Shown: positions 53,843-55,822, counted from the stretch's first letter. The stretch: DNA of 55,822 nucleotides from a virus (IMGVR_UViG_3300032322_000568:1-55822); one strand, 5' to 3'. Numbers and translations are program-made. Notes: generated from the sequence alone by a model not told the origin.

Positions 53843-54051
53843 ATCCCCAGCAGCTTCTTAACGAACATGGCCGCAACGCCTGGCCCAAGCAAGACAGCGG
53901 CGATCGTGATGTAAAGCAAGTGCTCAATGCGCTGCATCCGTTTTGAGCCGTCGGCAAAACGCTTTTCGATATTTTCGTATCGTTGTGCGCAAACTTGCTC
54001 GTGGCTTGTCAAACGCGCTTCCACTTCCGGGATAACCTTTATATCGTGCAT
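53839..54051 (-). CDS. coiled-coil + TM protein (HE..CA.RY family)
   Basis: RLTSHEQVCAQRYE.I..R...M.RIE plus C-terminal TM. Confidence 0.75.
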   Translation of the reverse strand: MHDIKVIPEVEARLTSHEQVCAQRYENIEKRFADGSKRMQRIEHLLYITIAAVLLGPGVAAMFVKKLLGI

Positions 54052-54554
54052 GTTAAGTGATACCTTCTTTTTGCCTGCAAGTACACCTGATGCGCTTCGT
54101 GAGGGGTGTCGAAATAACCAAGGTGCTTTTTCTTGCCATCAACCTGAATGTACGAACTGAACCGATTGGTGCCCTTAAAGAATGACACGCCCATAAAACC
54201 CGTGGAATTGTGCCTTGGCGGCCTTATATGATTGTGAATATTTTGCTGGTGGGTAACTTCTCGCAGGTTTGATAACCTGTTGTCAAGCCCGTTGCCATTT
54301 ATATGATCGATCTCTTTGGGCATGTAGCCATGGACGAAAAGCCATGCAAGTCGATGAGCGCGATCTCGATAACCGCCAAAACCAATCTGGATGTAACGCC
54401 CATTAATCACGCCGACCCTGGACCCTGGCTTTTTAGTGCCAGACGCCTTAATTCTCTGAAACTCGCCGGTCAAAGGGTCGTACGTCAAGTGCTGCATTAA
54501 CGCTTGACGCTTCGCTTCATGGACCGACAAGCGCTTATCCAAGTCGTCGCTCAT
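54039..54554 (-). CDS. HNH-AP2 homing endonuclease
   Basis: L.YDP.TG.F, AHRLAW, IDHINGNGLDNRLSNLR, STG..GV, HLGYF.T..EA...Y. Confidence 0.93.
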   Translation of the reverse strand: MSDDLDKRLSVHEAKRQALMQHLTYDPLTGEFQRIKASGTKKPGSRVGVINGRYIQIGFGGYRDRAHRLAWLFVHGYMPKEIDHINGNGLDNRLSNLREVTHQQNIHNHIRPPRHNSTGFMGVSFFKGTNRFSSYIQVDGKKKHLGYFDTPHEAHQVYLQAKRRYHLTCTI

Positions 54555-54556
54555 GA

Positions 54557-54874
54557 TTAGACACCTGAAGCAGTAAAGCCACTTAAGGAGACGCCTGCTG
54601 TACCAACATCAAGCGTAATGGTTTGCAGGGGTTCAGCAGTGGGGTCGATGATGGGTGCTTCAGACTTGACCCACGCCTCACTGGACTGAGACCAGTTCCA
54701 CACAAAGCCAGCCTCATCCGCAGGCTTCACAGGGCGAACAACCCATCCCGGTGGGAACCACCAAACAACTTCCTGACCGTCTGCTGCCGTGGGTGGCTCA
54801 GGCACTTCAATCCAACCATCAGTGTTATCCGTTTGCGGCTTGGGTATTGATCCGTTTTTGGAGTAAAGCATCAT
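54557..54874 (-). CDS. Trp/Pro-rich fibre-associated (chaperone-like) protein
   Basis: AAGGA RBS, GW.EV..PP and W.W....W pattern. Confidence 0.65.
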   Translation of the reverse strand: MMLYSKNGSIPKPQTDNTDGWIEVPEPPTAADGQEVVWWFPPGWVVRPVKPADEAGFVWNWSQSSEAWVKSEAPIIDPTAEPLQTITLDVGTAGVSLSGFTASGV

Positions 54875-54902
54875 TGATTCCTTGTTGCGTTATACTTTTC
54901 TA

Positions 54903-54948
54903 CCACGGCTGATGAGTCATTGTGACGAAACGCTTTTGCGTCCCGTGG
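54903..54948 (+). ncRNA. type I hammerhead ribozyme
   Basis: CCACGG-CTGATGA-GTCA ttg TGAC-GAA-ACGC tttt GCGT-C-CCGTGG: complete core and three stems, GUC cleavage after 54942. Confidence 0.93.
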
Positions 54949-55088
54949 AGTTTCCCGTGCGGGGGAATAACTGGAAGCCTGCCTGATCCAGCCTAAGCAC
55001 CTTCTCGTTGAGGGTTTTTAGGCCGTGGGTGTGCAACGGATCAGGTCCAGCACACATCTTGCCCTGCTGACAGATCGGAAAGACGGTC
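54943..55088 (+). ncRNA. structured RNA 3' of the hammerhead, unknown family
   Basis: Nested stems CCTGATCC/GGATCAGG, GCCTAA/TTAGGC, ACCTTC/GAGGGT, terminal GATCG-GAAAGA-CGGTC; G-U pairs favour the + strand. Confidence 0.65.
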
Positions 55089-55089
55089 A

Positions 55090-55822
55090 TCATTGATCCT
55101 GCCATTGAGATGTTTGTGGCGTGAAGTTTGCGGTGTATCGGGCAATGCCTTTAGTGATGCGGAAATCGTCAAGATAACCATAGTAAGCATAAATAGAACT
55201 TTGAGTATCAACAAAACCGCTTATTCGCAGGTTTGAATCAGACCAGTTTGTTGAGTTTGAAAGTGTTCCTTGAGAAACACCATTTACATAAATAGTAATC
55301 GTTGATCCAGAGCGAACTACCGCTATATGTTGCCACTGATTATTAACCCTTCCGCCTACGGTAAGTAGTGTGTAAGGGGACAGTCCGTAACCAAAAGCAA
55401 AACTAGATGTTCCGCTATTTGCAAAGAACATACCGTTGCCGCTTGTGTTGCTTGATCTTGTATCAAAAATGTTTCTTGAATTACTTGAAGTATCTAAGCA
55501 ATACGCCCAAAACTCAACGGTAAAGTTACCCGTCCCAAAAGCTACTGATTGATTGTTTGGAGCGGTTAATGAATCGCCGTCCCCATCAAAGTACATCGAA
55601 GCCCCACCAAACTTTGACTGCGTGGTACTGATCTGCGCGTTTGCCACCGTTTCAAGGTCGTTCATCATCGCGTTGTCAATGATGCCGCCATTGGTGTAGG
55701 AGCAGAGCAACTCAACATCGCCCGAAGTTGCACCTTGAGAAGATGTGGTCAGTGGCGCACTTGTCGGGGTAAATATTGATGTGCCATTAGTCGTGCTACT
55801 GGTTTGATAACTTGTTGGGATC
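55090..55822 (-). CDS. LamG repeat tail fibre protein, C-terminal part (enters from window end)
   Basis: Frame stays open upstream of 55710 to the window end; DNAMMNDLETV, G[ND]FTVEFW, GYLDDFRITKG.ARY. Confidence 0.85.
   Translation of the reverse strand, partial: IPTSYQTSSTTNGTSIFTPTSAPLTTSSQGATSGDVELLCSYTNGGIIDNAMMNDLETVANAQISTTQSKFGGASMYFDGDGDSLTAPNNQSVAFGTGNFTVEFWAYCLDTSSNSRNIFDTRSSNTSGNGMFFANSGTSSFAFGYGLSPYTLLTVGGRVNNQWQHIAVVRSGSTITIYVNGVSQGTLSNSTNWSDSNLRISGFVDTQSSIYAYYGYLDDFRITKGIARYTANFTPQTSQWQDQ

Follow-up and report, generated by a model that had tools for sequence, protein, structure and literature searches.

The hammerhead ribozyme motif (HH) in the window, by which we mean the whole 55,822-nt stretch of viral DNA that was analysed, is, by comparison with its relatives, the leading part of a more extensive and widespread phage RNA gene, whose predicted product is a tightly folded, double-pseudoknotted RNA of about 125 nt (the ncRNA). 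We consider it likely that the HH is a built-in 5’-end maturation module of this conserved, trans-acting phage ncRNA gene. A phage hammerhead would then have an assignable job, with the ribozyme at a fixed junction with one conserved RNA whose 5’ end forms stem I, and, if true, use of a HH as a dedicated 5’-end maturase of a bacterial or phage ncRNA would be a first. Of greater interest than the HH is the conserved family of ncRNAs that it caps; this family looks to be undescribed and is experimentally accessible in E. coli, and copies in cultured systems (E. coli lambdoid prophages, Enterobacter phage SDFMU_EhYP, and Pectobacterium phages Pappous and Taid) allow direct tests.

The hammerhead motif and its cassette in the window

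As read from the sequence, a complete type I HH occupies positions 54903-54948 of the + strand (Table 1), letter for letter as the first-pass annotation had described it. All conserved core positions of a type I hammerhead are present (C3 U4 G5 A6 N7 G8 A9, G12 A13 A14, A15.1-U16.1, and an H17 that is not G), and three helices, supported by covariation, surround the core with stem I open. The cleavage triplet is GUC, and the cut is predicted between 54942 and 54943 because the hammerhead rule puts cleavage after H17. A descriptor made of the core, with minimum lengths of 4 bp for stem I and 3 bp for both stem II and stem III, matched once on the two strands of the window, with stems I, II and III of 6, 4 and 4 bp, and gave no match in 300 dinucleotide-preserving shuffles. 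RNAfold reproduced the three-stem fold, at a folding energy that is not exceptional (z-scores of -0.68 and -1.55).

A search against the Rfam hammerhead models, which had been proposed as a check, gave matches below the gathering score only. At the gathering score the window HH was not called, while in E-value mode the sole hammerhead match in the window was RF00008 at 21.1 bits (E = 0.06; gathering score 48.5), aligned in a type III register, unlike our type I reading. Relatives scored 24.7-30.9 bits, below the gathering score as well (for RF00163, 28.7 and 24.7 bits against 34). By sequence and structure the window motif is a genuine type I member of the hammerhead family, under selection, that scores below the Rfam cut-off.

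Table 1. Features of the cassette and its borders in the window (positions counted from the first nucleotide of the window).
Feature	Position	Strand	Basis
Left copy of 10-bp direct repeat CATCATTGAT	54869-54878		sequence; RNA-library contig
Leader upstream of HH, holding TATACT (54891-54896)	54879-54902	+	sequence
HH enzyme part, stem I 5’ strand through C17	54903-54942	+	sequence, covariation, descriptor
HH stem I 5’ strand, CCACGG	54903-54908	+	sequence; stems covary
HH core, CUGAUGA	54909-54915	+	sequence
HH stem II hairpin, GUCA-UUG-UGAC	54916-54926	+	sequence; stems covary
HH GAA	54927-54929	+	sequence
HH stem III hairpin, ACGC-UUUU-GCGU	54930-54941	+	sequence; stems covary
HH C17	54942	+	sequence
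HH stem I 3’ strand, CCGUGG	54943-54948	+	sequence; also conserved 5’ end of ncRNA
ncRNA half 1	54943-54989	+	alignment, covariation, helix counts
ncRNA 5’ end, CCGUGGAG, directly after predicted cut (HH stem I 3’ strand)	from 54943	+	
Helix A	54950-54955 with 54973-54978	+	alignment, covariation
Helix B 5’ strand, GCGGGG, inside loop of helix A	54959-54964	+	covariation
AAUAACU, invariant, after helix B 5’ strand	half 1	+	
Helix C 5’ strand, CCUGAUCC	54982-54989	+	covariation
Linker hairpin E joining the halves; type A order only, sequence variable	54991-55023	+	covariation
ncRNA half 2, beginning CGUGGG	55024-55067	+	covariation, helix counts
Helix D	55029-55034 with 55050-55055	+	covariation
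Helix C 3’ strand, GGAUCAGG, inside loop of helix D	55038-55045	+	covariation
CAUCUU between helix D and helix B 3’ strand	half 2	+	
Helix B 3’ strand, CCCUGC	55062-55067	+	covariation
Accessory hairpin GAUCGGAAAGACGGUC, cassette 3’ edge	55073-55088	+	sequence; covarying stems in other contexts
Right copy of direct repeat CATCATTGAT	55088-55097		sequence; RNA-library contig
62-aa ORF antisense to ncRNA, probably not a gene	54917-55105	-	starts just upstream of duplicated ATGATG, read in frame

The window record is a whole virus genome, 99% complete and circularly permuted, and the HH with its ncRNA forms a discrete cassette of about 210 bp (54879-55088) in it, antisense between two minus-strand genes. 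The annotated antisense placement of the HH thereby stood: the cassette lies between the stop of a tail-fibre-like gene with a Laminin_G_3 domain (minus strand, 1002 across the record ends to 55090, that is 1-1002 plus 55090-55822) and the gene at 54557-54874. The 10-bp direct repeat at its ends carries, on the minus strand, the ATGATG start of the latter gene in the left copy and the TGA stop (55090-55092) of the former in the right copy. Both flanking genes are intact because the repeat is, on that strand, their overlapping stop/start junction in duplicate, and the same duplication explains the 62-aa ORF opposite the ncRNA. Pfam held no family for the two small ORFs that flank or overlap the cassette, the 62-aa ORF included. 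Stop-free frames had a median of 82 codons opposite the element and 53 on the sense strand in 65 contexts, these being raw medians. A coding role misfits the element because of its two gene orders, its variable insert lengths and its compensatory G-U pairs, and seems excluded by permutations and covariation. On the minus strand, a free-standing HNH endonuclease with an AP2-like domain (54039-54554) is encoded two genes downstream of the cassette.

RNA evidence came from four RNA-library runs as assembled, unstranded contigs that hold no end or expression-level information. In one contig (X19) position 54868 is followed directly by 55088, so that 219 nt are missing, and 10 letters at the join fit both sides; a second (X18) has 35 other letters in place of 54879-55132; and a third (X17, 389 nt) covers the whole cassette uninterrupted across the cut site, and, being strandless, could come from DNA or minus-strand mRNA. 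Relatives with and without the cassette therefore both exist. Within the clade of the window the cassette is 98.1-100% identical in seven relatives, the gene upstream of it 86.5-95.2% (six relatives) and the end of the downstream tail-fibre gene 60.9-67.5% (seven relatives). The 46-nt HH has no change in eight relatives of this clade, and the two clade changes that fall inside helices both turn a G-U into a Watson-Crick pair.

The proposal that TATACT is the -10 box of a promoter, with a +1 set accordingly, was not borne out. There is no clear -35 visible upstream of it, a promoter scan of 54500-55400 called no sigma-70-like site, and the motif upstream of the HH has no second copy elsewhere in the window genome. 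In a second, more distant antisense lineage (L136) we saw by eye a TTGACA-15 nt-TATACT about 110 nt upstream of the element and a hairpin with a T-run downstream, which would suit a stand-alone gene, though neither was called by the scan tool. In 7 of 70 contexts among the matches listed, the element adjoins a further small hairpin, whose stems covary and whose GGAAAGAC loop is conserved; it was seen at 55073-55088 in the window, in L136, on both sides in L145, and in L012.

Fold, distribution and gene orders of the ncRNA

A distant blastn search of 54400-55400 against 50,697 phage records returned four matches (Pectobacterium phages Pappous and Taid, Dickeya phage Setonix and Enterobacter phage SDFMU_EhYP), which cover 54906-55064, a span that takes in the HH and some 120 nt on its downstream side, and not the HH alone. 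Alignment revealed compensatory changes in all three HH stems and an even better conserved downstream part with covarying hairpins. Further copies were recovered by pattern scans built from invariant stretches: in IMG/VR at least 118 stretches with the first pattern, 71 with a stricter one and at least 119 with a looser one, and in a one-genome-per-species collection 13 stretches, of which five were chance matches in coding sequence and eight were true elements; these eight all lay in MAGs, whose labels, taken as given, come from several phyla. Confirmation by nhmmer covered 33 loci among the matches listed, 30 of them from the first IMG/VR pattern and three from named phages (L001-L003). The family numbers at least in the hundreds. 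Blastn of one element of the second gene order described below (L005) found no match in the phage records, and tblastn of the 528-aa window protein found no relative among the same 50,697.

The ncRNA spans 54943-55067 of the + strand, and its first segment, CCGUGG, doubles as the 3’ strand of HH stem I. Helix B is a pseudoknot between the loop of helix A and the 3’ end of the RNA, and helix C is a second pseudoknot. By eye the two halves are alike, with CGUGG followed in each by a hairpin, then by (C)UAG, and last by a tail whose pairing partner is the loop of the other hairpin; since the halves resemble each other, we read the fold as pseudo-symmetric. The single-stranded motifs are near-invariant among relatives.

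Covariation of the four ncRNA helices is strong across more than 120 distinct relatives in phage contigs among the matches listed. When helices were counted in the 77 contexts that could be parsed (out of 79, among the matches listed), helix A had all six of its pairs in 75 contexts (10 distinct helix sequences), helix B was fully paired in 73 (23 sequences), helix C kept at least six contiguous pairs in 76 (48 sequences) and helix D was fully paired in 71 (34 sequences). In 21 type A sequences the whole structure had 91.9% of cells paired against 80.8% in shuffles, a value reached by none of 500 shuffles, and slid controls gave 32-47%; 20 pairs across the structure had changed on both sides. 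In the same set, HH stems I, II and III were paired in 88.1%, 97.6% and 100% of cells, with 2, 3 and 2 pairs showing double changes, and linker hairpin E (helix 7) in 97.4%, with four such pairs. Folding-energy z-scores were uninformative. The + strand is the strand of the functional RNA, because the G-U pairs of the helices would be mismatches on the reverse strand; the tRNAs near the element, described below, agree with this strand.

The element comes in two gene orders. Type A, to which the window belongs, runs HH, half 1, hairpin E, half 2, and type B runs half 2, spacer, HH, half 1, a circular permutation of type A; in type B, cleavage by the HH would split the RNA into two pieces, which helices B and C would keep joined. 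Among the matches listed, 123 of 135 distinct contexts could be assigned an order, with 11 unresolved and one chance match. All 34 type A elements have a canonical HH core, with neither a 2-3 nt loop in its place nor a variant, decayed or different insert in any of them; the 89 type B elements divide into 72 with a canonical core, eight with a 2-3 nt loop instead and nine with a variant, decayed or different insert, so that the core is canonical in 106 of the 123 overall. An earlier, stricter set gave CUGANGA...GAAA...U-H in 68 of 71 distinct upstream strings among the matches listed, with C (43), A (23) or U (2) and never G at H17.

Relatives with uncompensated core changes, which the first-pass annotation had named as evidence against its reading, do exist, with different incidence in the two orders: 17 of 89 type B members, together with one Acinetobacter locus, and none of 34 type A members among the matches listed. 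The core-changed relatives are a minority, none of them with the gene order of the window among these matches. The ncRNA part has counterparts at 72.3% identity in eleven Acinetobacter plasmid records, and in the one locus that we read (L180, an Acinetobacter pittii plasmid, 2660-2905) a divergent element lies directly after a tRNA and HH position 12 is A, which suggests that the ribozyme is probably weakened there and the ncRNA retained. Judging from the type B members that have no canonical HH, cleavage would not be indispensable to the family. CGYGGAG is kept even in members without the HH; therefore the ribozyme borrows a segment that the ncRNA itself needs.

Proposed maturation of the ncRNA and competing explanations

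In the mechanism that we favour, + strand transcription through the cassette would make the ribozyme first, and its CCACGG would pair with the conserved 5’ CCGUGG of the ncRNA to form stem I. Self-cleavage after C54942 would remove the leader and leave 5’-HO-CCGUGGAG, and the released RNA of about 125 nt would fold into the pseudo-symmetric double pseudoknot, made of helices A to D and linker hairpin E, to act in trans as a stable structured RNA. For the window phage we infer each of these elements, namely + strand transcription, cleavage, the importance of the 5’-OH end and a function of the ncRNA. Maturation fits the intact cores of all 34 type A elements among the matches listed, because the type A 5’ end must be made, and it fits the loss of the core in some type B members, because the junction there is internal. 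The first-pass annotation had imagined a dedicated transcript trimming itself to an RNA with a 5’-OH; making a defined 5’-OH end remains the most likely job of the HH, and in place of an arbitrary transcript the RNA would be the conserved ncRNA. That the 5’-OH would protect it from 5’-monophosphate-dependent decay is plausible but speculative.

HH stem I could instead have a chiefly structural role in the ncRNA, as the equivalent of the terminal CGUGG/CCACG helix of type B members, with cleavage incidental, reversible or regulatory, for example as a switch between two CGUGG segments, rather than a step in maturation. The pseudo-symmetry of the RNA would suit such a helix, as would the retention of CGYGGAG in HH-less members and several type B 3’ trailers that by eye are complementary to the first CGUGG segment (for example in L168, L104 and L171). 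A purely structural helix, however, needs neither an intact catalytic core, found in 106 of 123 elements, nor an H17 that is never G (both among the matches listed), and it is type A, the order in which a 5’ end is required, that keeps the core without exception among these matches. We regard this explanation as unlikely.

It is rather improbable, in our estimate, that the HH serves the spread of a small selfish cassette, RNA-mediated or otherwise mobile, rather than a phage function, although several observations would suit it. The cassette is polymorphic for presence and absence, with the 10-bp direct repeat at its ends, and is far more conserved than its flanks. An EhYP-type copy at 96-98% identity occurs in 15 of 5426 complete E. 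coli genomes, so that a T7-like Enterobacter phage and E. coli prophages of the lambdoid kind carry nearly the same cassette. In the one such locus examined, in a lambdoid prophage of E. coli strain A35 (L179), its place is between Q and the holin gene, directly behind a sequence that we take to be pR’, the 6S leader and tR’. The flanking stem (CAACAGGUAAGAGCAUUG ... CAGUGCUCUUUCCGUUG) is present in lambda too, just after tR’, and there its loop has 37 nt in the position that a 171-nt HH-ncRNA takes in the prophage, and phage phiKDA1 has a 41-nt loop in the stem position where EhYP holds the HH-ncRNA, so that a cassette replaces a loop of 37-41 nt. This conserved stem of about 20 bp is common to lambda, the E. 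coli lambdoid prophage and two KP34-like Enterobacter phages (about 283-372 in lambda J02459, L181; 560-655 in phiKDA1, L178; 3990-4200 in L179; 2440-2700 in L002) and folds well (z = -4.09 in lambda). It looks like a common processing hairpin used as an insertion site, and may be an RNase III-type site. In the literature as searched here we found no description of a HH in lambdoid prophages. Against a selfish cassette, no reverse transcriptase, transposase or other gene accompanies it, terminal inverted repeats were not seen by eye, and with one ribozyme per unit a unit-length RNA could not be excised by self-cleavage alone; the strong structural constraint over about 125 nt points instead to a function of the RNA itself.

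The + strand RNA might also be an antisense regulator of the minus-strand operon, acting at the junction of the tail-fibre-like gene and the gene at 54557-54874, with the HH only shaping it. In the window the cassette is indeed antisense and sits exactly at the overlapping stop/start junction, and this orientation is kept in the clade of the window and in L136. Elsewhere the picture differs, and we consider the regulator highly improbable: the whole cassette is found across many unrelated phages, usually on the strand of the genes or tRNAs beside it, and its sole complementary target would be its own reverse strand. Among the matches listed, the surrounding ORFs of 68 contexts were co-oriented with the element in 40, mixed in 14 and antisense in 14, and tRNAs lay within 2 kb of the element in 17 of 75 contexts (five of the 75 being chance matches), all 79 tRNAs found within that distance being on the same strand as the element.

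In Pappous a tRNA-Met follows the element directly. The same phage has a ‘hypothetical protein’, CDS0014, annotated over the ncRNA (L001, 2533-2649), which is probably a misannotation. In three RNA-rich loci (L137, L145 and L158) we noticed a repeated motif resembling CAGCCGTGTTGG beside tRNA ends, both upstream and downstream of the element.

That the HH is a chance motif or a decaying, functionless relic, as its scores below the Rfam gathering thresholds and the lack of a promoter called in the scan might suggest, has a negligible probability and is already contradicted by the empty result in 300 shuffles, the covariation of all stems, the canonical core in 106 of 123 relatives among the matches listed and a HH that is unchanged in a clade whose flanks differ by 5-39%.

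Relation to known RNAs and possible activity

No Rfam 15 family matched the ncRNA, either at the gathering score on the window or in E-value mode on the window region and nine loci from relatives, and the contiguous forms without a HH (L104 and L175) had no Rfam match. In the E-value search, twister, twister-sister, pistol and hatchet gave no match over the same region and loci. The sole non-hammerhead match over the element was CRISPR-DR58 (15.7 bits against 38, E = 3.8), which we rejected, as covariation supports the long-range helix B and not a local repeat hairpin. A tmRNA or tRNA was rejected as well, with no gene called by ARAGORN in the window, and so was Drum RNA, which is described differently in the portion of PMC5737381 covered here and had no Rfam match. 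We found no published description of the ncRNA in the literature searched, and its gene seems not to have been described before, though motif lists in the supplements to PMC5737381 and PMC10085705 could bear on this.

Type I hammerheads in intergenic regions of phages and prophages, mostly of unknown function, were reported by Perreault et al. (2011; PMC3088659), where, in the parts considered here, processing of long phage transcripts is suggested as their role. The HH described here is like those, as far as that text presents them, in its catalytic core, three-helix junction, open stem I and phage context. Unlike them, it builds stem I from the conserved 5’ end of a specific ncRNA, is fixed in an RNA gene in both gene orders rather than flanking protein genes, has no evident loop-loop or pseudoknot contact and scores below the Rfam gathering threshold. 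Another of the closest analogies, a ribozyme that defines a 5’ end as is predicted here, comes from the same source: the HHphage of haloviruses HF1 and HF2, whose cleavage site lies at most three nucleotides from a mapped phage transcript 5’ end (PMC3088659). There the product is a helicase-operon mRNA and the ribozyme a variant needing high salt, whereas here the product would be a structured ncRNA and the core is canonical.

The twister ribozyme is a small double-pseudoknotted RNA that is found near hammerheads in phage-like regions, and the ncRNA is like it in its small size, its double pseudoknot and its natural circular permutations, although no self-cleavage is predicted for the ncRNA itself. 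The phi29 packaging RNA is likewise phage-encoded, about 120 nt long, dependent on covarying loop pairings and tolerant of circular permutation; the likeness is one of description only, and we know of no packaging RNA in the lambdoid, T7-like and many unclassified phages that carry the ncRNA. Circularly permuted, two-piece tmRNA genes offer another close parallel, a structured RNA in permuted order whose transcript is cut into two cooperating pieces, comparable to type B after the predicted HH cleavage; to our knowledge no ribozyme within the tmRNA gene produces those pieces, and unlike tmRNA the ncRNA has, by eye, no T-arm or acceptor features. These tmRNA genes are mentioned by Eckert et al. 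(2023; PMC10085705), in the portion of that article considered here, which also states natural circular permutations of the twister ribozyme and lists such permutations for only a few RNA classes.

Carriers of the ncRNA include lambdoid and T7-like phages, many phages that are unclassified, and MAGs whose labels, taken as given, come from many phyla, and a neighbourhood search for a conserved partner protein found clade-specific clusters only. Our best guess, made from comparative data, is that the ncRNA has a host-independent activity, either binding of a universal ligand or partner or catalysis, because its single-stranded motifs hardly vary, the phages and MAGs that carry it bear labels from many phyla, and there is no linked protein gene. 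Strict conservation, two pseudoknots and permutation are traits usual in ribozymes and ligand-binding RNAs, and make it a candidate new RNA class. We see about an even chance that it is a new, widespread class of phage ncRNA defined by a pseudo-symmetric double pseudoknot, near-invariant motifs, two permutations, a self-cleaving ribozyme housed in one of its helices and giving a one- or two-piece RNA, and a self-contained activity, be it as a new ribozyme or as an aptamer that sequesters some universal small molecule, for instance a nucleotide immune signal.

As for the ribozyme itself, loop II is short and free to vary in sequence and length, and no conserved tertiary partner for it was seen among relatives. 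The window HH thus looks minimal, with no sign of the contact between stem I and loop II that gives fast cleavage at low Mg2+, and at the Mg2+ levels of a cell it may be slow. The neighbour of stem I in the ncRNA is helix A, which directly adjoins it and could perhaps stand in for such a contact. In many type B HHs (for example L069, L080, L106, L151, L171 and L173) the first pair of stem II is non-Watson-Crick (U-U or A-A), and the stem II loop of type B HHs has a recurrent UGNNAU closed by C-G, which may be a tertiary-contact motif.
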